From an uncultured Gammaproteobacteria bacterium (GTDB taxonomy: Bacteria; Patescibacteriota; Patescibacteriia; Magasanikbacterales; 2-02-FULL-50-9b), in assembly GCA_964623315.1 (NCBI GenBank), contig CAZUSU010000036.1, forward strand, positions 1 to 40,909: a stretch of DNA of 40,909 bases. The letters run 5' to 3'. Under the pieces are notes generated by a model that was given only the letters and a program-made list of their open reading frames with translations, did no database searches and was not told where the DNA came from. The position numbers and the translations under genes are program-made. Below are positions 1-22,661 of this stretch, piece by piece (within the stretch, counting starts at the first letter, position 1; each line of letters opens with the position of its first letter).

Positions 1-1008
1 GAAACGGATCTACAGAATCCTTCTGTTTTGGCTGATCAACAAAAATCATTAATCGCATCGCGTCGGTATGCGGAATTATCGCCGGCGCTTGGAAAAATTC
101 GTCATGTCGCCGTATTACAAACACAACTCAATTCAGCACAGCGCATGGTAGAAACGGAAACGGATCTTGACATGGTCGCGTTGGCACAGACAGAAATAGA
201 AACGATGCGCGCTGAAATTGATAGTGGTGAACGGGAGATCGTCGAGCTCCTCCGCGAACCAGACCCGTTCGCCAACAAAAATGTTATCGTTGAAATCCGC
301 GCCGGCGTGGGCGGCGACGAAGCCGGATTATTTGCGGCAGAACTCTATCGCCTGTACACGATGTATGCGGGCACGCGCGGGTGGAAATCAGACCTCATGT
401 CTATCAGTCGCACCGGTATTGGCGGCGTCAAAGAAGTGGTGTTTGAAATTCAAGGGCGCGGCGTGTATGGCGATTTGCAATTTGAAAGCGGCGTCCATCG
501 TGTCCAACGCGTGCCGGAAACAGAAAAAGCCGGACGCGTGCACACCTCAACGGTAACGGTTGCAATTATGCCGGAGCCAGAAGCGGTGGACATTGTGTTG
601 GAACCGAAAGATTTAAAAATTGAAGCAACCACTTCGCAAGGCGCGGGCGGGCAATCTGTGAACACCACGTACAGTGCCATTCGTATGGTGCACCTCCCGA
701 CCGGCATAGTGGTAACGTGCCAAGACGAACGCTCGCAACAACAAAATAAAGAACGCGCATTGCAAATTATGCGTGCCCGCGTTTTTGAAGCAGAAGTTGC
801 GCGCGCCGCGGCCGAGCGAGCGGCAAAACGCAAATCACAAATCGGCTCCGGCGATCGGTCCGAAAAAATTCGCACCTATAATTTTCCGCAAGACCGTGTG
901 ACAGACCATCGCATTGAAATGTCATGGCACAATTTGCCAAAAATAATGGATGGGGATATTGGCGGAATTATTGAGGCGCTGAAGGAGGCGAATCGGGAGG
1001 ATGCTTGA
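1..1008 (+). CDS. prfA: Peptide chain release factor 1, 5' end cut by window edge
   Basis: Frame 1 is open from base 1 (ETDLQNPSV precedes the TTG at 28), so the start lies upstream of the window. It has the RF1-type PxT tripeptide ([14 protein letters not shown]) and the GGQ motif ([12 protein letters not shown]). TGA stop at 1006-1008. Confidence 0.9.
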
Positions 1009-1144
1009 CGCCCCATTCCAGTTTTGCTAAACTTTCCCCAATCTAATTCAAATCACCCGGCTACAAAAATCCGCCCGTGTCCTGCCCACAGCACTAAACT
1101 GCGGGTCCACGTGCGAGGCCGGCGTCGTTAAAAGGCAAAATCAT

Positions 1145-1918
1145 ATGACCACCATCCCTCAACTTGAGGAGCTCATGAGCGCGGGCGCGCACTTTGGCCA
1201 CCGCGCAACGCGCTGGCATCCAAAAATGAAGCCGTTCATTTTTGGCGAACGTCAGGGCGTGCACGTTATTAATTTGGAGGAAACGCAAACAAAACTTGCC
1301 GAGGCGTTGGAATTTATGAAACAACTCGCCGCACAAGGAAAGACGATTTTGTTTTTGGGCACTAAGCGTCAGGCGCAACAGATTATTTTAGAAGAGGCAA
1401 CGCGGTGCGGCATGCCCTACGTTACTATTGCGTGGATCGGCGGCCTCCTTACTAACTACGATGAAATCGGCAAACTGCTGGATCGTTTTCGCCAAATGCG
1501 CAGTGATCGTGAAACGGGCGTGTGGGAAAAATACACCAAAAAAGAACGCCTGCGGCTGGAAGAGGATTTGCACAAAAAAAATGAAACACTGCTCGGCATG
1601 GTCACGTTAAAAAAAGTTCCGGATGCACTGTTCATCGTTGATATTCGCACAGAAAAAACAGCGGTTAATGAGACGCTCATGCGCGGCGTGCCAACGGTTG
1701 CTTTGGTTGACACCAATGTGAATCCGGATCAGGTGACGTATCCCATTCCTTGTAACGATGACGCATCCAAAGCGATTGGGCTGATGACTCGTCTAGTTGC
1801 CGATGCCATTTTGGAAGGCAAAACAGAACGCGCGGCCGTGATGGCACAAGCCGCAGAAGAAACGGCAAAAAAGCGTGCCGCCACGGCGCCACCTGCACAA
1901 ATTATTTCCGCAGGATAA
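1145..1918 (+). CDS. rpsB: 30S ribosomal protein S2
   Basis: 257-aa ORF with the S2 signature region HFGHRATRWHPKMKPFIFGERQGVHVINLEET. It is followed by tsf, the conserved rpsB-tsf pair. Confidence 0.93.
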   Translation: MTTIPQLEELMSAGAHFGHRATRWHPKMKPFIFGERQGVHVINLEETQTKLAEALEFMKQLAAQGKTILFLGTKRQAQQIILEEATRCGMPYVTIAWIGGLLTNYDEIGKLLDRFRQMRSDRETGVWEKYTKKERLRLEEDLHKKNETLLGMVTLKKVPDALFIVDIRTEKTAVNETLMRGVPTVALVDTNVNPDQVTYPIPCNDDASKAIGLMTRLVADAILEGKTERAAVMAQAAEETAKKRAATAPPAQIISAG

Positions 1919-1934
1919 TTTTTATTTCGTTCTT

Positions 1935-2528
1935 ATGTTAGACACAAAATTGATAACCGAGTTACGTGAAAAAACAGGCGCCGGCGTAGTAGATGTCAAA
2001 GCGGCACTGGAAGAAACCGGTGGCGACATGACCGCGGCCGAAGAACTCCTGCGCAAAAAAGGAATTCTAAAGGCCGGCAAAAAAGCAGACCGCGTGGCCG
2101 GCGAGGGGATTGTGTATTCGTATATTCATGGCGGCGGCAAAGTTGGCGTGCTGTTGGAGTTGCGCTGTGAAACGGATTTTGTGGCGCGCAACGAAGCGTT
2201 CACCACCTTGGCTCACGATATAGCGTTGCATATTGCGGCGATGAATCCGTTATATTTGGAAGCGGGGTCTGTGCCACCCGAGGTGTTAGAAAAGGAATGC
2301 GACATTTATCGCGCCGAAGTGGCGGGTTCCGGCAAACCAGATGATATAATTGCAAAAATAGTTGATGGCAAATTGGCAAAATATTACGGTGACGTCTGTT
2401 TACTTAATCAGCAGTTTGTCAAAGATGAATCACAAACTATTGATGATCTCATAAAAGCGGCCATCGCAAAAATTGGCGAAAATATTCAAGTAAAACGGTT
2501 TGTGCGGTTTCATGTGGGGCAGGAATAA
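1935..2528 (+). CDS. tsf: Elongation factor Ts (short form, 197 aa)
   Basis: The ORF track starts at 1875 inside rpsB. The in-frame ATG at 1935 gives MLDTKLITELREKTGAGVVDVKAALEE, the typical EF-Ts UBA-like N-terminus, followed by the ELRCETDFVARNE core. Confidence 0.9.
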   Translation: MLDTKLITELREKTGAGVVDVKAALEETGGDMTAAEELLRKKGILKAGKKADRVAGEGIVYSYIHGGGKVGVLLELRCETDFVARNEAFTTLAHDIALHIAAMNPLYLEAGSVPPEVLEKECDIYRAEVAGSGKPDDIIAKIVDGKLAKYYGDVCLLNQQFVKDESQTIDDLIKAAIAKIGENIQVKRFVRFHVGQE

Positions 2529-2534
2529 TAAAAT

Positions 2535-2563
2535 AAAAAATCGGCCCCGCAGCCGATTTTTTA
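2535..2563. terminator. Bidirectional intrinsic terminator between tsf and the convergent 118-aa ORF
   Basis: aaaaaaTCGGCcccgcaGCCGAtttttt: a 5-bp GC stem flanked by an A-run on one side and a T-run on the other. Confidence 0.6.
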
Positions 2564-2569
2564 TGTGGC

Positions 2570-2926
2570 CTATACCGTGCGCAGTTCACTCGCTTGTTGC
2601 TGGGTAAGAATATTTTTTGCTTCTAACATTCCGGTCAGTAAAAAGTTGAACGTATCTTGGCGTCCCGATTTTGCACCGAATCCACTGTGGAACGATTTTG
2701 TTTCAGCGCGGAATTCTTTAAGCTCTTGTTTGACCGTTGACATTTCTGTCTTGAGTACACGAACGTCGGTTTTGAGTTCCAACAAATCCTGCTGGATGCA
2801 GGTAAAATATTCTTCGTGTTCAGCGAACTTTTTGTCCATGTGCTCAATAATGTCACCCTTAAGTTTTCGTAACTCGGTGAACACGGTGCGGAGCGTAATG
2901 CGGGTGCGGACCTCCTTGTGTGGCAT
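2570..2926 (-). CDS. Hypothetical small coiled-coil protein (118 aa)
   Basis: It is the only long ORF in the tsf-gap gap. It is K/E/L-rich with heptad-like stretches (DLLELKTDVRVLKTEMSTVKQELKEFRAE). I recognise no family. Confidence 0.45.
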   Translation of the reverse strand: MPHKEVRTRITLRTVFTELRKLKGDIIEHMDKKFAEHEEYFTCIQQDLLELKTDVRVLKTEMSTVKQELKEFRAETKSFHSGFGAKSGRQDTFNFLLTGMLEAKNILTQQQASELRTV

Positions 2927-3012
2927 ATTAACTTGGATTAATGAATATTGAATTGATTATGCCATAGCTAAAAAATTGCGCAAGCGTCAAAAGTGCATAA
3001 CCATGGGCCTTC

Positions 3013-3085
3013 TGTGGATAATAAAAAAGTTATCCACTGGCAGTGCCGTTTTCCACAGGTTATCCCTGTGGAAATCCGGATAAGT
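3013..3085. promoter_or_regulatory. Cluster of DnaA-box-like 9-mers upstream of gap
   Basis: TGTGGATAA at 3013-3021 is the reverse complement of TTATCCACA (9/9). TTATCCACt at 3030-3038 matches 8/9 and TTtTCCACA at 3049-3057 matches 8/9. Weaker copies are TTATCCctg at 3060-3068, tgtggaaat at 3067-3075 and ccggataag at 3076-3084. An AT-rich stretch lies just upstream (2927-3000). Confidence 0.5.
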
Positions 3086-3093
3086 GCTATAAT
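3085..3093 (+). promoter_or_regulatory. Extended -10 element (TGcTATAAT) of the gap promoter
   Basis: TGCTATAAT lies 24 nt upstream of the gap ATG. There is no SD in the short leader. Confidence 0.55.
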
Positions 3094-3116
3094 ATCGGCA
3101 CATTTCTAAAAACAAT

Positions 3117-4109
3117 ATGGCATCACGTGTAGCAATTAATGGGTTCGGTCGCATTGGTCGTCAGGCGTTTAAGGCGGGGTTTGCTAGAAAGGCAATCAAT
3201 TTTGTCGCAATTAATGATTTGGCGAGCGCCGAGCAGTTGGCATATTTATTAGAATACGATTCCGTGTACGGGCGGTGGCCGCATAAAATTGCGGCGCGCG
3301 GCGGCCTGCTCATAGTGGATGGCAAAAAAATTCCGGTACTCGCAGAAAAAGATCCGGCCGCTCTGCCGTGGAAAAAATTATCCGTTGATGTGGTGGTTGA
3401 ATCTACGGGACGATTCACGGATTCAGCAGGATTGCAAAAACATATTACGGCCGGCGCGCGCGCCGTTATTTTATCTGCGCCGGCAAAAGGCGGCAACGTG
3501 CCAACAGTGGTGCGCGGCGTGAATGATCAAAAATTAGGTCGCCTCAAAATAATTAACAACGCCAGTTGCACCACCAACTGTGTGGCGCCGGTAACCGCCG
3601 TGATACACGAAAATTTTGGCGTGGTTAAAGCCGGCATGACCACCATTCATTCATACACCGCAGATCAAGCACTTGTTGATGGCCCGCACAAAGATTTTCG
3701 GCGCGGTCGTAGCGCCGCACTTAATATGGTGCCCACATCAACCGGCGCCGCGCGCGCCGTTACGGAAACAATCACAGAATTGCGCGGCAAGTTTGATGGG
3801 TGCGCCATTCGCGTGCCGACGCCCTGTGGCTCGCTTTCAGACATCACCTTTGTGACGCGCAAAAAAACTTCTGTTGCACAGGTCAACGCCGCACTGCGCG
3901 CGGCCGCAAAACAAAAACGGTGGAAAGGAATTGTCACCTGTTCTGAAGGCGGCCTTGTTTCGCAGGACATCATCGGCAACACGGCAAGCGCCATTGTTGA
4001 TCTTCAATTCACGCAAGTCATTGACGGCGACCTCGTGAAAATTTTAGCGTGGTATGACAATGAATGGGGGTATGCGCATCGGCTCATGGAAATGGTGGAG
4101 CTGATGTGA
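3117..4109 (+). CDS. gap: Type I glyceraldehyde-3-phosphate dehydrogenase
   Basis: NAD-binding INGFGRIGR, catalytic SCTTNC motif, C-terminal WYDNEWGY. Confidence 0.95.
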   Translation: MASRVAINGFGRIGRQAFKAGFARKAINFVAINDLASAEQLAYLLEYDSVYGRWPHKIAARGGLLIVDGKKIPVLAEKDPAALPWKKLSVDVVVESTGRFTDSAGLQKHITAGARAVILSAPAKGGNVPTVVRGVNDQKLGRLKIINNASCTTNCVAPVTAVIHENFGVVKAGMTTIHSYTADQALVDGPHKDFRRGRSAALNMVPTSTGAARAVTETITELRGKFDGCAIRVPTPCGSLSDITFVTRKKTSVAQVNAALRAAAKQKRWKGIVTCSEGGLVSQDIIGNTASAIVDLQFTQVIDGDLVKILAWYDNEWGYAHRLMEMVELM

Positions 4110-6695: not shown

Positions 6696-7791
6696 CACCA
6701 CTTGATAAGTGGTTGCGAAAAAGGAGCTCGTCCAGAGCACCTACGCAAGACCTTGCGACACCCAAAGGGTTCTCCGGTTCTGAACTGGAGGATAACAGGA
6801 GTGAGACGAGGCACTACGGGGGAAGGTTCTAGTGGAAGGTTCCGAAAGGGACTGACCAAACGATTACGATGAGCACTGTAATAATAGGTAACCGGTGCGG
6901 CCGTAATGCTGTGCAGAGGAACTGAATAAAAACAGTGAAGCATCCTTAGACGCAAAAAACTCTCTGATGCAGTCGTTTGTATCAGGTCGTCATCTGTCTT
7001 GTACACGTGGGTGTGCAGGGCTGGTCCTTGAGGCCAAGATGTGCGACGACCTAGCCCGCAAGGGAAGGGTTGAGTCAATGGCTACCGCCGGTAAGATTCG
7101 TGGGAATAAGCGCAAGTAAACTTCCCGAAACGAAAAAGACCAGCTGGAAAAAGGAACTCCCAGTTCCGGCCAGTGAATCCACAAGGGAAAATTGCCAGAC
7201 GCGGCGGTCGTGCAGACCAAAGCAAATCAATCTGGTGACGAGTTCTCAAACGCCTAAATTCGGAGGCGGTGGGGAAGCAAAAGCACGGCTTCGGTCGTGA
7301 AATAGCAACACTCGGGAACAATTCAGCAATGGGTTGTTCACAGCACATTCTCATACATGATACATGAAGAGCGCGTGGTGGAGACATCACATGCACTACA
7401 TGTAGGATGCGCGGGCGATGAGTCCAAGCAATCATGTGGGCGCACTAAGACAGCGCCACGAGAAGACCGAAGTCCAGTCATAAGAACGAGCGGTGTCGCC
7501 CTTACGGGATGACAGTAGAGCCGCTTGTTACGCTAGGTCGCAAGATCGAATGATGTGGTGGTTGGTGTAAAAGCCGCAAGGCAATAAGCCAACAAGCGCA
7601 GGCCTAATCAGAAAGGCCAAAAACGAACGCTGTTGCCGATGACAGTGTGCGTGGCGCGAAAAAATCTACCATCGAATGCCAAGAACTGTTACAGGTTCAT
7701 GGTAAACACCAGTTAAGGTACGTCCATTGTACGTCGTGAACCGCAAGGATCACAACGTACATCAGATGTCCTGACTGGTCGTTTTTTTTTT
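6696..7791 (+). ncRNA. Candidate large (~1.1 kb) structured noncoding RNA, family unknown
   Basis: There is no credible ORF on either strand; the six-frame ORFs are 76-127 aa, overlap each other and are R/P/S-rich. A promoter lies upstream and a T10 run at 7782-7791. Hairpins are dense on the + strand. Examples: 6697-6713; UUCC-GAAA-GGGA 6840-6851; CCC-GCAA-GGG 7055-7064; 6-bp stem with triloop 7153-7167; CACGGC-UUCG-GUCGUG 7284-7299; 7436-7459; GGUC-GCAA-GAUC 7536-7547; GCC-GCAA-GGC 7573-7582. A 32-nt GCAA-capped hairpin spans 7729-7760. A longer-range complement joins 6984-6991 and 7045-7052. The ends are approximate. Confidence 0.5.
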
Positions 7792-15213: not shown

Positions 15214-15288
15214 AATGTTATAGTTTTTCGTCAATTTATAGCCATAATGCGGCCCTACATTGACTGAACCTTATAATCTAAACATTGA

Positions 15289-15347
15289 ATTGTCGAGCAT
15301 CGCGCTTCTCTACTGCCTCCCAGCAGGGAAGTGCAATACTCGACAAT
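15289..15347 (+). promoter_or_regulatory. Three-tier hairpin in the 5' leader of the GC-rich small gene
   Basis: ATTGTCGAG at 15289-15297 pairs with CTCGACAAT at 15339-15347. GCGCTTC at 15302-15308 pairs with GAAGTGC at 15328-15334. CTGC at 15313-15316 pairs with GCAG at 15323-15326. The strong SD GAGGGAGGG follows, 6 nt before the ATG. Confidence 0.4.
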
Positions 15348-15368
15348 AAATTGTTGAGGGAGGGTAAA

Positions 15369-15812
15369 ATGAAAGACCCGAAATCGGTGATCATCGTGGT
15401 TGCCGTCGGTTTGCTTGTAGTGCTTCTATTCATCGTTGTAGTGTGGGCGAGTAGCCCTTCAGATCAAGAAAAGACCGCTTCGTTCAGCAGCTGCACGCAG
15501 AGTTCGGTCGGCGTGTTTGGCTACAACGTGTGGGCCGAACTCAAAATGACCAAGTACGGCGGCTACAGGAAAGGTGTCTTCCTGATTTCGGAGTACCCTG
15601 GCAGTACCGAAACCGTCTGCACCAACTTCTGCCAGCGTGCGGGTGCGTTGCGTGGCTCGGACACGGCGATCTCGCACCTGTCGGCTGATCCGAGCATCAT
15701 GCAGATGGTCGCCGGCGACGCACCGTGTGCTGCGTTCAAGGTGCTCGTGACGAATGGCCGCGCCTCGTTCGTCCGTTTGCCGCTGGACCCAACGGCTGGC
15801 GATATGCCCTGA
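15369..15812 (+). CDS. Hypothetical membrane-anchored, Cys-containing small protein (147 aa), GC-rich
   Basis: The internal ATG at 15369 is preceded by GAGGGAGGG. N-terminal TM anchor (VIIVVAVGLLVVLLFIVVVWA), four Cys in the predicted external part, and no family I recognise. It is visibly GC-richer than its neighbours. Confidence 0.55.
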   Translation: MKDPKSVIIVVAVGLLVVLLFIVVVWASSPSDQEKTASFSSCTQSSVGVFGYNVWAELKMTKYGGYRKGVFLISEYPGSTETVCTNFCQRAGALRGSDTAISHLSADPSIMQMVAGDAPCAAFKVLVTNGRASFVRLPLDPTAGDMP

Positions 15813-19815: not shown

Positions 19816-20220
19816 TTATTCAGCCGTGACAATAACTTTTCCGGCGAACCGCGGATCCAACCCTTTGTGGTCGTGGAATTTCCACGTGCCGGTTTTGGTG
19901 AATACAAAGCGCCATGTTTCTCCGGGCTTTATCGGTTTATTGGGATTAAATTCCGGATAGTCCGTATGTATTGGATGCGGGGTGCTTGCCGGCCAGTGAT
20001 CTTTTAAATCACTGTTGCGAAATTCAATGCCATCGCCGGAGCGTAACGTTATTTCTTTTGGGGTGACGCCGTTGGGATTAAAGGTAACGGCGGTAAAAAC
20101 CGGCTCGCGCACGCGGGCGGTAGTCGGCGCCAATGGTGTGGTCGCTGACCCACTGCATCCCCAGCCGGTGAGCACAAGCGCCGCGCCAAAAGCGACAGAA
20201 GCAAGTTTGGTGTAATTCAT
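19816..20220 (-). CDS. Cupredoxin-like domain lipoprotein/secreted protein
   Basis: ATG at 20220 gives MNYTKLASVAFGAALVLTGWGC (lipobox-like). Then FNPNGVTPKEITLRSGDGIEFRNSD...GETWRFVFTKTGTWKFHDH, resembling cupredoxin-like domains. Confidence 0.6.
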   Translation of the reverse strand: MNYTKLASVAFGAALVLTGWGCSGSATTPLAPTTARVREPVFTAVTFNPNGVTPKEITLRSGDGIEFRNSDLKDHWPASTPHPIHTDYPEFNPNKPIKPGETWRFVFTKTGTWKFHDHKGLDPRFAGKVIVTAE

Positions 20221-20292
20221 AGTTGAATCAGTATACCACGGCACTTGCCCCTATTTCAAAAACGTGTTATATTGTTCACAATAAAAATATCT

Positions 20293-20775: not shown

Positions 20776-20859
20776 TGGTCTGTTCAAAAGTTGACGAATT
20801 TATAATAACGGTGTAATTTTTTATCGTCCTACTATTTAGGGCGTAGGCGAGGAGGAGTA

Positions 20860-22251
20860 ATGTCAGCTGTCCGTAAACAGGGGGGGATGGGTCGGAGTGG
20901 TTTTTTGTCATTTTTGCGTCATCCTGACGCGGCGCAGTGGATTGCTGGGGGTGATGCGCAGGCCGCAAATTTGGATGACGTTGTTCGCATGACTCTGGAA
21001 CGCATGTACGCACAGGCACGGCAAATTCATCGTGTGGGTCAAACGGGCGCTCGCGCGGGGATCGTTCTGCTCATTCGTACGCAACTGACGCGTGATGAAC
21101 AGCGCGCGCTCGGTAATGACGGAGAGCTCTATCTTGAGATGGTGGCGGCTCTTGCAGATTGCCACCACATTCTTGATGAGCTTGCCAAGTACGTGCCGGA
21201 CAATCTGCGTCAGTTGTGGTCTTCGGACGGCATTGCTAAAAATTGGTGCACGCCGGAAGAGGTGTTGGTCGGCATGTTCTTTCCGAATTGGGATGGGGGA
21301 CAGCGCCGTAGTGGTCCGTTGCAGGGCGGGTTGGACGGATTGCGTTCGTGGATCGCTATGCGCGCATGGTTTTTTGCGTGCAACTGGATGGTGCAGAGGC
21401 ATCTGTTGGTAACGGGTGCGCGCAAGATGAGGGCGTTTACGACGGCGCTGGAACACGGTGGTTTTTTTGAGCCCGTTGTAGATTCGCGCATTCAGAATCT
21501 CACGTTTTTTGTGGATCCGAAACGCGGTTTTTTGTGGACGAGTGAAGAAACCGGAGTGAGCGTGACGCTGGCTCTTTCGCATCGCACCATCAAGGTCAAG
21601 GATCGGCTTGTGCGTGTTTGGTACACGGCGCGGGTCAAAGAGCTTGCCGCGTTGTGGGGTCGCGCGCATCGGCGCGGTTCGGTTCATGATCATATTGCCG
21701 CAACGCTGATGTTTGAAAGCCATAAGGACTATGTGGATGCGGTACCGATCATCAACGGCATTCTGCGTCGCAAAAAGCAGATCGTGTCCGTGAAGGTCGT
21801 GGACGAAGGTCGCGTGGGAGGGCGGGTCAATCCGGCAAGCGCCGGATATCGCGGCGTGTTCTGGAGCGGTGTCATCAAGGTGGCCGGTGTGACAGTTGAG
21901 CTTGAATGTGCGCATCTGCCACGGTATCTTGACGGTGTTTGCTCGCTGACGCTGTTTAACCACCGCGCGTATGAGGTGCGCCGGTTGCTGGTTAGTACGG
22001 CTGTAGAGGGATCATCTCTGTGGCAGTTACTTTTTCCGGGGAAGTACTACCATGAGATGGACGCCGCAATGGCCATTCGCATGATTCGTCGCCAGCTCAT
22101 GATCGTTGCGACTGATTTGCAATGGCGCACCGGAAAGAACCTGCCGACGGCCGCATTCAGGGAGGTGGCGAAGCTGTGCGCAGTGCTCGAAGAGCATCCG
22201 GAGGCGATTCTTGAACCTAGCAGGTTCAGCACAGTACTGCACATTCCATAA
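20860..22251 (+). CDS. Hypothetical 463-aa protein, GC-rich. The C-terminal half has a RelA/SpoT-like (RSH nucleotidyltransferase) motif order with non-canonical residues
   Basis: Strong SD (AGGAGGAG) 4 nt before the ATG. Hand-counted sample lines are about 57-63% GC, against about 45% in a gpmI line. Residues 258-375 read ARVKELAALWGRAHRRG / VHDHIAATLMF / GYRGVFWSG / VTVELECAH / NHRAYEVRR. These parallel the RSH synthetase motifs RxKxxxSxxxKxxR / DxxGxR / GYRSxH / EIQIRT / HxxYK, aligned by eye only. Confidence 0.6.
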   Translation: MSAVRKQGGMGRSGFLSFLRHPDAAQWIAGGDAQAANLDDVVRMTLERMYAQARQIHRVGQTGARAGIVLLIRTQLTRDEQRALGNDGELYLEMVAALADCHHILDELAKYVPDNLRQLWSSDGIAKNWCTPEEVLVGMFFPNWDGGQRRSGPLQGGLDGLRSWIAMRAWFFACNWMVQRHLLVTGARKMRAFTTALEHGGFFEPVVDSRIQNLTFFVDPKRGFLWTSEETGVSVTLALSHRTIKVKDRLVRVWYTARVKELAALWGRAHRRGSVHDHIAATLMFESHKDYVDAVPIINGILRRKKQIVSVKVVDEGRVGGRVNPASAGYRGVFWSGVIKVAGVTVELECAHLPRYLDGVCSLTLFNHRAYEVRRLLVSTAVEGSSLWQLLFPGKYYHEMDAAMAIRMIRRQLMIVATDLQWRTGKNLPTAAFREVAKLCAVLEEHPEAILEPSRFSTVLHIP

Positions 22252-22268
22252 TTCCGAACCAAACCAGT

Positions 22269-22314
22269 CCGCGCTACCCCTTGAACCTGAAGGTGGTGGC
22301 GCGGCCGTTTTTTT
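22269..22314 (+). terminator. Intrinsic terminator after the 463-aa ORF
   Basis: CCGCGCTACC at 22269-22278 pairs with GGTGGCGCGG at 22295-22304. It is followed by CCG and T7 at 22308-22314. Confidence 0.6.
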
Positions 22315-22368: not shown

Positions 22369-22661
22369 TCGGTATTTGAGTCGGACTATAGCGCAGTTGG
22401 TAGCGCGCATGCATGGGGGCTCGTGCGAAGCGAGAAGCCAACAGTTTGGCTTCGAGCCGCGCGAGCGAGCGAGTGATGCGATGTGAATCGCCACGAGCTC
22501 CGGTTTTGAGTTGTCTGTGTGGTCGGGGTATAGCTCAGTTGGCTAGAGCGCTTGCATGGGGTGCAAGAGGTCGTCGGTTCAAGTCCGGTTACCCCGACCA
22601 CATAGACAACGAGAAAATGAGGTCGCGGGTTCAAGTCCCGCTAGTCCGACTCAAATACCGA
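22369..22661 (+). other. Split tRNA-Pro-like gene: 5' half and 3' half separated by ~195 nt and closed by a perfect 21-bp helix
   Basis: The 5' half at 22382-22419 reads CGGACUA UA GCGC AGUUGGUA GCGC G CAUGC AUGGGGG. The 3' half at 22617-22649 reads AUG AGGUC GCGGG UUCAAGU CCCGC UAGUCCG A. The pair C1:G72 and discriminator A73 match the Pro identity set. The acceptor pairing continues into the flanks: 22368-22388 is the exact reverse complement of 22642-22662. Only 3 of 5 anticodon-stem pairs can form across the insertion. Confidence 0.55.
22524..22600 (+). tRNA. tRNA-Pro (anticodon GGG), CCA encoded
   Basis: Hand-folded cloverleaf: CGGGGUA UA GCUC AGUUGGCUA GAGC G CUUGC AU-GGG-GU GCAAG AGGUC GUCGG UUCAAGU CCGGU UACCCCG A CCA. 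It has C1:G72, A73, U33 and G37. The T stem has two G-U pairs. Confidence 0.85.

Follow-up and report, generated by a model that had tools for sequence, protein, structure and literature searches.

The window analysed here is positions 1 to 40,909 of contig CAZUSU010000036.1 (assembly GCA_964623315.1), deposited under the name of an uncultured Gammaproteobacteria bacterium and placed by the GTDB in the Magasanikbacterales (Patescibacteriota). Between positions 20,776 and 22,314 it carries a forward-strand gene for a 463-amino-acid (463-aa) protein (P0001), whose core is homologous to the synthetase domain of the RelA/SpoT homologs (RSHs). The coding sequence extends from 20860 to 22251, stop codon included, as given by the open reading frame (ORF) call and by homologs that align over the full length. 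A Shine-Dalgarno motif, AGGAGG, lies at 20850..20855 on the same strand, 4 nt upstream of the ATG, and in the two closest relatives (loci L001 and L002), too, a motif of the GGAGG type stands before the start codon. Downstream lies a strong intrinsic terminator, likewise on the forward strand (22269..22314), made of a 14-bp G+C-rich hairpin and seven T residues. The hairpin (22269-22304) followed by U7 folds with -27 kcal/mol (z = -4.06), and none of 200 shuffled sequences was as stable. The ORF, its strong ribosome-binding motif and its own terminator had been pointed out in a preliminary description of this DNA, and all were located. The same description regarded the gene as a stand-alone transcription unit. 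An own promoter, and with it an own transcription unit, is no more than plausible, because the putative element read from the sequence, TTGACG-17 nt-TAATTT (20791..20819, forward strand), scored under the threshold of a consensus promoter scan. This element lies within the 85-nt spacer downstream of ndk, and the form TTGAC[GA]-18-TAA[TG]GT is found in the corresponding intergenic region of L001 and L002.

The 463-aa ORF is a real gene. Comparison with its two closest orthologs gave a dN/dS of 0.17-0.20, i.e., purifying selection, and the frame is intact in two metagenome runs (X1 and X2) that contain the sequence, with five of six population variants being synonymous. All runs in which the sequence was found are DNA runs. 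The non-synonymous variant lies at window position 21662 on a low-depth contig of run X2 and puts a His in place of R268, which is the third basic residue in the putative ATP-binding motif described below. We rejected as a gene the 351-aa antisense ORF at 20908-21963, which shadows the GC-rich coding strand and whose frame is closed in the orthologs. In L002 the ortholog carries an in-frame TAG (L002 3742-3744) at the position of K395 in the window protein, which is a Q in L001. The frame past it is open and conserved for 65 codons more, to the usual C-terminus. A recent nonsense mutation, a mistake in assembly or read-through could each account for the TAG.

With a G+C content (GC) of 0.562 and a GC at third codon positions (GC3) of 0.612, the gene lies above the means of the 39 ORFs in the window (0.507 and 0.528, respectively). 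It had been described as markedly richer in GC than its neighbours. Its GC is indeed higher than that of ndk (0.458-0.479), but with a z of ~1.8 and rank 2 among the 39 ORFs it is a modest outlier and not a marked one. An excess of GC and GC3 over both the local ndk and the locus average was found in all eight orthologs compared, and is thus a trait of the family and not a sign of recent transfer. A foreign origin on the grounds of raised GC was rejected given this shared excess and vertical synteny. Another ORF, at 15285-15812, ranks first of the 39 in both GC (0.564) and GC3 (0.688), and one conserved backbone thus holds two fast-evolving, GC-rich, lineage-specific genes.

The structure of the protein was predicted with AlphaFold2 from 14 sequences, which gave a confident model (predicted local distance difference test, pLDDT, 85.6; predicted template modelling score, pTM, 0.85), whereas a run with three sequences reached a pLDDT of just 49. 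The model consists of an all-helical domain (residues ~14-199), a beta-hairpin segment (211-246), a core and a C-terminal helical bundle. The core runs through a strand (249-259), a helix (262-272), a strand (279-285), a helix (288-301), a strand (308-314), two strands (333-341 and 344-352) and helices (353-377), and in this prediction it has the topology of an RSH synthetase. We searched for similar structures with Foldseek. The top ten matches in the PDB were all RSH chains, among them SpoT (7qpr, 7qps), RelSeq (1vj7, 24io) and ribosome-bound RelA (5kpv), with a best E of 1.2e-3 at a probability of 0.90. Nucleotidyltransferases of the Pol-beta type and RelP came next. In the BFVD library the first match was a 'RelA/SpoT family protein' of Sinorhizobium phage phiN3 (probability 1.00) and the second a 'RelA/SpoT' protein of an uncultured phage (probability 0.98), with a phage protein annotated as Tas1 among the weaker ones. 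No unrelated fold competes among the Foldseek matches. Thus, in both libraries it is RSH proteins that rank first.

Profile comparison led to the same family. As a reference we aligned RSH synthetase domains from E. coli RelA and SpoT, from long RSHs of Listeria, Azospirillum, Streptomyces and Rickettsia, and from four plasmid small alarmone synthetases (SASs) of the 'GTP pyrophosphokinase family'. Against it, hhalign gave a probability of 94.2% (P = 1.1e-7, 111 columns) for an alignment of 14 family sequences and of 95.1% (P = 3.2e-8) for one of 23. The controls, 30 column-shuffled and two reversed alignments, scored at most 16.2 compared with 61.5, with P of at least 0.24. When the reference was extended to the full N-terminal halves of eight long RSHs, residues 181-400 aligned with the RSH linker and synthetase domain (SYNTH) over 165 columns (P = 3.3e-7), and T-x-x-L-E198-x-x-x-F202 of the family paired with the K-x-E-L-E-D-x-x-F helix that links the HD and SYNTH domains in RSHs. 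A hidden Markov model (HMM) of 23 family sequences had a sole PDB match below E = 0.1, which was 8acu, a 'GTP pyrophosphokinase' (E = 0.008), while an HMM of 13 sequences returned helical-bundle noise alone. That the resemblance arises by chance or from composition, the protein being an unrelated new fold, would fit with single-sequence and HMM-to-sequence searches that were silent or marginal. Yet the shuffled and reversed controls were clean, two structure libraries and the HMM search of the PDB converge on RSHs, and the invariant residues fall on RSH catalytic positions. This explanation is largely refuted and we regard it as barely conceivable. With hhalign, Foldseek, the family HMM and the invariant residues in agreement, the core (residues ~190-375) is homologous to the RSH synthetase domain, which upholds the earlier reading by eye of an RSH/small-alarmone-synthetase motif order at residues 258-375.

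We then considered which residues of the RSH active site the family retains. The 23 sequences share 17-56% identity and are invariant at G124, P142, R162, A166, E198, F202, R242, K260, D277, N324, E347, Y371 and P393, and R258 is present in 22 of the 23. Across the core, the 13- to 23-sequence alignments read R-x-K-x3-S-x2-[RK]-K ... D-x2-A ... N-x2-S ... G ... E-[LV]-[EQD] ... N-H-x2-Y, and distant members have stretches such as 'GRVK..FRK', 'EVQIF' and 'ENHHLYRLKQ' that are near the RSH synthetase motifs. In RSHs, the R-x-K...K residues bind the phosphates of ATP. R258 and K260 are paired with this R-x-K by hhalign. In the motif R-x-K-x3-S-x3-K, position +10 is basic, being R268 in the window copy and part of 'RK' in most members, and the Ser, kept in most members, is Ala in the window copy. 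D277 is paired with the Asp of DxxGxR and E347 with the Glu of EIQIRT, both in 23 of 23 sequences, and H368 and Y371 are paired with HxxYK. At the acceptor site just N324 is retained, aligned with the Asn of KPNGY, and the family has 'DxxA' where RSHs have DxxG. The segment GYRGVF had been proposed to stand for GYRSxH. This pairing is unsupported because its tyrosine, Y330, is not conserved in the family, and the alignment places N324 opposite the Asn of KPNGY instead. Some canonical residues are altered, as had been observed: neither the His of GYxSxH nor the R-T of EIQIRT is conserved. In FaRel2, the equivalent of D277, D90, coordinates Mg2+ and is essential, as is Y128, the Tyr that stacks on the acceptor (bioRxiv 10.1101/2021.04.30.441581). 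Thus, donor and catalytic metal sites look intact and the acceptor site has been rebuilt. It is highly probable that the family has a homologous RSH-type core with a conserved active site.

Two other views of the core have to be weighed against these residues. The first is that the protein is a catalytically inactive RSH-fold pseudoenzyme serving as a nucleotide-binding sensor, regulator or scaffold. It would be consistent with the loss of the G and R of DxxGxR, of the Y and H of GYxSxH and of the R-T of EIQIRT, with fast evolution of the gene (56% identity where ndk has 91%) and with the R268H variant in a related strain. Pseudoenzymes usually lose metal- and phosphate-binding residues first, whereas the residues that are invariant here at 17-56% identity are the metal-binding Asp and Glu and the phosphate-binding Lys and Arg, a pattern expected for retained catalysis. 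We therefore consider a pseudoenzyme unlikely. The second is that the protein is a nucleotidyltransferase of the Pol-beta superfamily with another chemistry, transferring a nucleoside monophosphate in place of pyrophosphate, for example by adenylylation or uridylylation of a small molecule, of a protein or of the 3' end of an RNA. The second tier of Foldseek matches, with poly(A) polymerases, Pol mu/TdT, CutA, PolX and enzymes of the CCA-adding type, would agree with this, as would an acceptor site that has diverged from that of RSHs. Classical Pol-beta nucleotidyltransferases have the signature G[GS]...[DE]h[DE]h. The family does not have it; what it has is the RSH-specific R-x-K...K helix, the H-x-x-Y helix and a single Asp on the strand. 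In addition, each of the two structure libraries places RSH proteins ahead of every other nucleotidyltransferase, and it is RSHs specifically that the profile matches; we regard nucleotide transfer of this kind as quite unlikely.

Combining the model with the alignments, we divided the protein into segments, all encoded on the forward strand. Residues 1-185 (20860..21414) form the all-helical N-terminal domain, predicted mostly at a pLDDT of 85-94. This domain is under functional constraint, as it carries several of the invariants, G124 (in the motif F[TS]SDG), P142, R162 and A166. No Pfam or PDB-sequence match was found for residues 1-185, and comparison with HD domains gave no profile signal (hhalign P = 0.26). 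Foldseek alignments to SpoT and RelSeq do span 340-474 columns, but with a TM-score of ~0.19. The linker helix T-x-x-L-E198-x-x-x-F202 follows at residues 186-209 (21415..21486), as aligned by hhalign with the RSH linker. Residues 210-247 (21487..21600), seen in the model, the alignment and the comparison with RSHs, are a family-specific beta-hairpin insert with the invariant R242, which takes the place of a helical segment found there in RSHs. The RSH synthetase-like catalytic core comprises residues 248-377 (21601..21990), on the evidence of hhalign, Foldseek and the HMM search of the PDB. Residues 378-463 (21991..22248) contain the F392-P393 motif and the C-terminal helical bundle, according to the model and the alignment. 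The bundle is truncated in a short subfamily of ~400 aa. These C-terminal helices had no match in the alignment of RSH N-terminal halves (HD + SYNTH), and Pfam detected no TGS, ZFD or ACT regulatory domain, the protein ending at residue 463 after the bundle.

We sought to establish how widespread the family is. A word-indexed search of 5.8 billion proteins yielded two relatives at ~55% identity, an exhaustive phmmer search of 1.84 billion cluster representatives yielded 11, and a profile of the short subfamily added nine more. Beyond the 11, the short subfamily counts 12 representative clusters. In total the family has ~25 homolog clusters, all from Patescibacteria and mostly from Magasanikbacteria. 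The named records are metagenome-assembled genomes (MAGs) of 'Candidatus Magasanikbacteria' or a 'Patescibacteria group bacterium', and all three hits in genomes were to Magasanikbacteria MAGs. The protein is an orphan, as it had been called, in part: it has relatives, but none of the family clusters carries a functional name or a precomputed Pfam domain. The long form has 440-481 aa and the short form ~400 aa. The family gene evolves much faster than its neighbours, with 56% identity where ndk has 91% and 27-34% where uvrD has 60-65%, and it is for this reason that annotation pipelines have not recognised it.

The surroundings of the long-form gene are stable. The order is queA, tgt, a C39-like peptidase gene, uvrD, a small cupredoxin-like ORF on the opposite strand, ndk, the family gene and a glycan cluster. 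This backbone position is kept in the window and in L001, L002, L006, L007/8, L015/16, L017 and L019-21, down to ~20-28% identity. The clade of L004, L010 and L013 has the family gene inverted relative to ndk and still adjoining it, with IMPDH directly upstream, while short-form genes are located away from the ndk backbone. The family gene is thus vertically inherited and stable at a fixed housekeeping locus.

Some neighbours of the family gene deserve mention in their own right. The cupredoxin-like ORF (window 19816-20244, reverse strand, 142 aa; Pfam Cupredoxin_1 E = 1.8e-5, just sub-threshold) is divergent from ndk, is syntenic in most long-form loci, the L004 clade excepted, and evolves fast (37-64% identity). 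A 105-aa ORF without a Pfam match lies between ndk and the family gene in L007 (2282-2599) and L008 (2280-2597), the sole long-form locus type with a small adjoining ORF. Downstream of the short-form gene, two loci (L018 2043-2663 and L022 2253-2876) encode a protein of 206/207 aa that has a transmembrane helix at its N-terminus and is not matched by Pfam. It is 63% identical between the two loci, where the family gene itself is 46% identical, and is found in two of three short-form loci, the third (L009) having a MiaB-like radical-SAM gene there instead. We tried this membrane-anchored neighbour as a conserved antitoxin of the short subfamily, and two related loci are too little to conclude. 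The Magasanikbacteria contig with P0004 (L004) carries genes for an AbiEii/Pol-beta nucleotidyltransferase and a PhdYeFM-type toxin-antitoxin system around the rpsL-rpsG-fusA operon (1-3274 and 6740-7214). These are unrelated to the family gene.

Downstream of the gene, within 22384-22655 of the window, is the split tRNA-Pro locus noted previously. A tRNA-Pro(GGG)-like gene is present in two halves (5' half ~22386-22422, 3' half ~22620-22652), and an intact tRNA-Pro(GGG) lies between them at 22524-22600. The contigs of L001, L002 and run X1 all end inside the outer 5' half. Further contigs of X1 and X2, alike at 88%, join 22418 to 22617-22619 with three to five letters between, which is the expected look of uninterrupted tRNA-Pro genes of related organisms.

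Such a location had suggested a toxic small alarmone synthetase (toxSAS) akin to FaRel2 or CapRel, which would pyrophosphorylate tRNA 3' CCA ends in a toxin-antitoxin or anti-phage setting, with the tRNA-Pro functionally linked to it. An RSH-like core would fit this proposal, as would the basic nature of the window copy (isoelectric point, pI, 9.6; core net charge +12) and the tRNA-Pro locus 3' of it, which the two closest relatives share. The tRNA, however, is restricted to these three loci and is absent beside the gene in every other locus of the family; we thus rejected a functional tRNA linkage, and the adjacency looks coincidental and unrelated to the function of the gene. Neither is the charge conserved, since pI ranges from 5.5 to 10 across the family, nor is the acceptor-stacking Tyr that FaRel2 requires. 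As was also stated at the outset, no antitoxin-like small ORF flanks the window gene, and in the window and 12 related loci the long-form gene was without a conserved partner ORF beside it. PADLOC and PHROGs searches returned no defence or phage matches, and the fixed backbone position beside ndk has been inherited vertically over deep divergence. A conserved bicistronic arrangement is the hallmark of toxSASs, which are defined by an operon of two or three genes with the antitoxin gene adjoining (PMC7229694), and by these defining genomic criteria the family is not a toxSAS; we consider that reading very improbable.

Our combined findings point, with moderate confidence, to a very divergent, lineage-specific pyrophosphokinase of the RSH type with non-canonical recognition of its acceptor, encoded by a housekeeping or regulatory gene that is not a toxSAS and to which the tRNA locus is unrelated. 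The protein would be an active, Mg2+-dependent enzyme with ATP as donor, moving the beta-gamma pyrophosphate of ATP to an acceptor of the 3'-OH type. In canonical enzymes a guanine acceptor is held by the stacking Tyr and by the His of G-Y-x-S-x-H. Neither is conserved here, so that the acceptor would be recognised differently, perhaps aided by the N-terminal domain and by R242, the invariant residue in the family-specific beta-hairpin. Either a nucleotide other than GDP/GTP, or GDP/GTP bound in a different manner, may serve as this acceptor, and the N-terminal domain may contribute to the acceptor pocket. The role would lie in lineage-specific nucleotide signalling or metabolism, which the ndk adjacency kept through an inversion, and the IMPDH gene upstream in one clade, weakly favour.

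Several points weigh against this reading. Searches of Pfam, NCBIfam, PADLOC, PHROGs and PDB sequences with the window protein gave no match, and individual Pfam scans of 13 members were silent. None of the 23 members reached the gathering threshold of Pfam PF04607 (RelA_SpoT), the best score being that of a single member at E = 0.015, and the window protein had no match to it at E <= 10; no sequence-to-profile search was significant. The Foldseek E-values are marginal (~1e-3) and the TM-scores low (0.2-0.36), since no more than about a third of the protein belongs to the common core. The acceptor-stacking Tyr and the His of GYxSxH vary, and neither the G and R of DxxGxR nor the R-T of EIQIRT is conserved; with these residues missing, which active RSHs conserve highly, catalytic activity and pyrophosphokinase chemistry are what we infer from the residues that remain. 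The low-depth R268H variant alters the third basic residue of the motif. Finally, the linkage to ndk and IMPDH may merely mirror gene order kept within one lineage.

A bolder version of the pyrophosphokinase proposal can also be formulated. The family may represent an unseen RSH branch that is the own alarmone-type enzyme of Magasanikbacteria and related bacteria of the candidate phyla radiation (CPR), with an acceptor pocket remodelled partly from the helical domain. Its product would be non-canonical, such as the 3'-diphosphate of an adenine or other nucleotide or a pyrophosphorylated non-nucleotide acceptor, and it would be tied to the neighbouring genes of purine-nucleotide metabolism (ndk, and IMPDH in one clade). 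We offer this as a tentative idea that is more doubtful than not.

How does the protein compare with known RSHs? A published census recognises 30 SAS, 11 small alarmone hydrolase (SAH) and 13 long-RSH subfamilies (PMC7229694). The 463-aa protein works most like the core of a small alarmone synthetase set in a new architecture. With the SASs RelP and RelQ (PDB 6ewz, 6ex0, 6fgx) and the plasmid 'GTP pyrophosphokinase family' it shares the core order of a strand, a helix (R-x-K...S...K), a strand (Asp), a helix, strands, a strand (Glu-x-Gln) and a helix (H-x-x-Y), and it has the phosphate- and metal-binding residues in common with both. It differs from SASs in being ~460 aa long compared with ~200-290 aa, and in adding the 185-aa helical N-terminal domain, the beta-hairpin insert with R242 and the C-terminal helical bundle. 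It also lacks the acceptor Tyr and His, the G and R of DxxGxR and the R-T of EIQIRT, and PF04607 is blind to it. Long RSHs (RelSeq 1vj7, SpoT 7qpr, RelA 5kpv) are the best structural matches. They have a similar layout of a helical domain followed by a synthetase domain, and the match reaches into their 'ELEDxxF' linker helix (E198/F202). In contrast to long RSHs, the protein has no homology to an HD or pseudo-HD domain that profile comparison could detect (the P = 0.26 given above), no TGS, ZFD or ACT domain and no evident ribosome-sensing module. The toxSASs (FaRel, FaRel2, PhRel, CapRel) and the secreted effector Tas1 show that an RSH core can have its acceptor shifted from guanine to adenine nucleotides or to the tRNA CCA end. 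Unlike those of toxSASs, the gene described here is not accompanied by an antitoxin gene, lies outside any mobile or defence context and shows no conserved link to tRNA genes; it occupies a fixed, vertically inherited locus and encodes a multi-domain protein. Moreover, the acceptor-stacking Tyr that FaRel2 keeps and needs is absent from the family. Because it fails the PF04607 HMM test and is without the acceptor-site residues, we do not file the family as an ordinary member of the RelA_SpoT family; it is a new divergent variant within the RSH superfamily.

A search of the literature on RSHs or ppGpp in CPR bacteria turned up nothing informative. These bacteria have reduced genomes and a growth-control physiology that is largely unknown, and the rarity of the family (~25 clusters in 5.8 billion proteins) limits how far the finding reaches in general. 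RSH enzymes have a central part in regulating bacterial growth, and censuses of them rest on family HMMs. The Pfam and NCBIfam models that we tried overlook this family. Divergent enzymes of the RSH type thus exist in CPR/Patescibacteria and sequence models can miss them. A false lead has also been removed, as neither the tRNA neighbour nor the raised GC marks the gene as a mobile toxin. An enzyme of this kind, if active, would through its altered acceptor site and new accessory domain widen the chemistry of RSHs past (p)ppGpp, (pp)pApp and tRNA pyrophosphorylation, and would make nucleotide signalling in CPR bacteria accessible to experiment.

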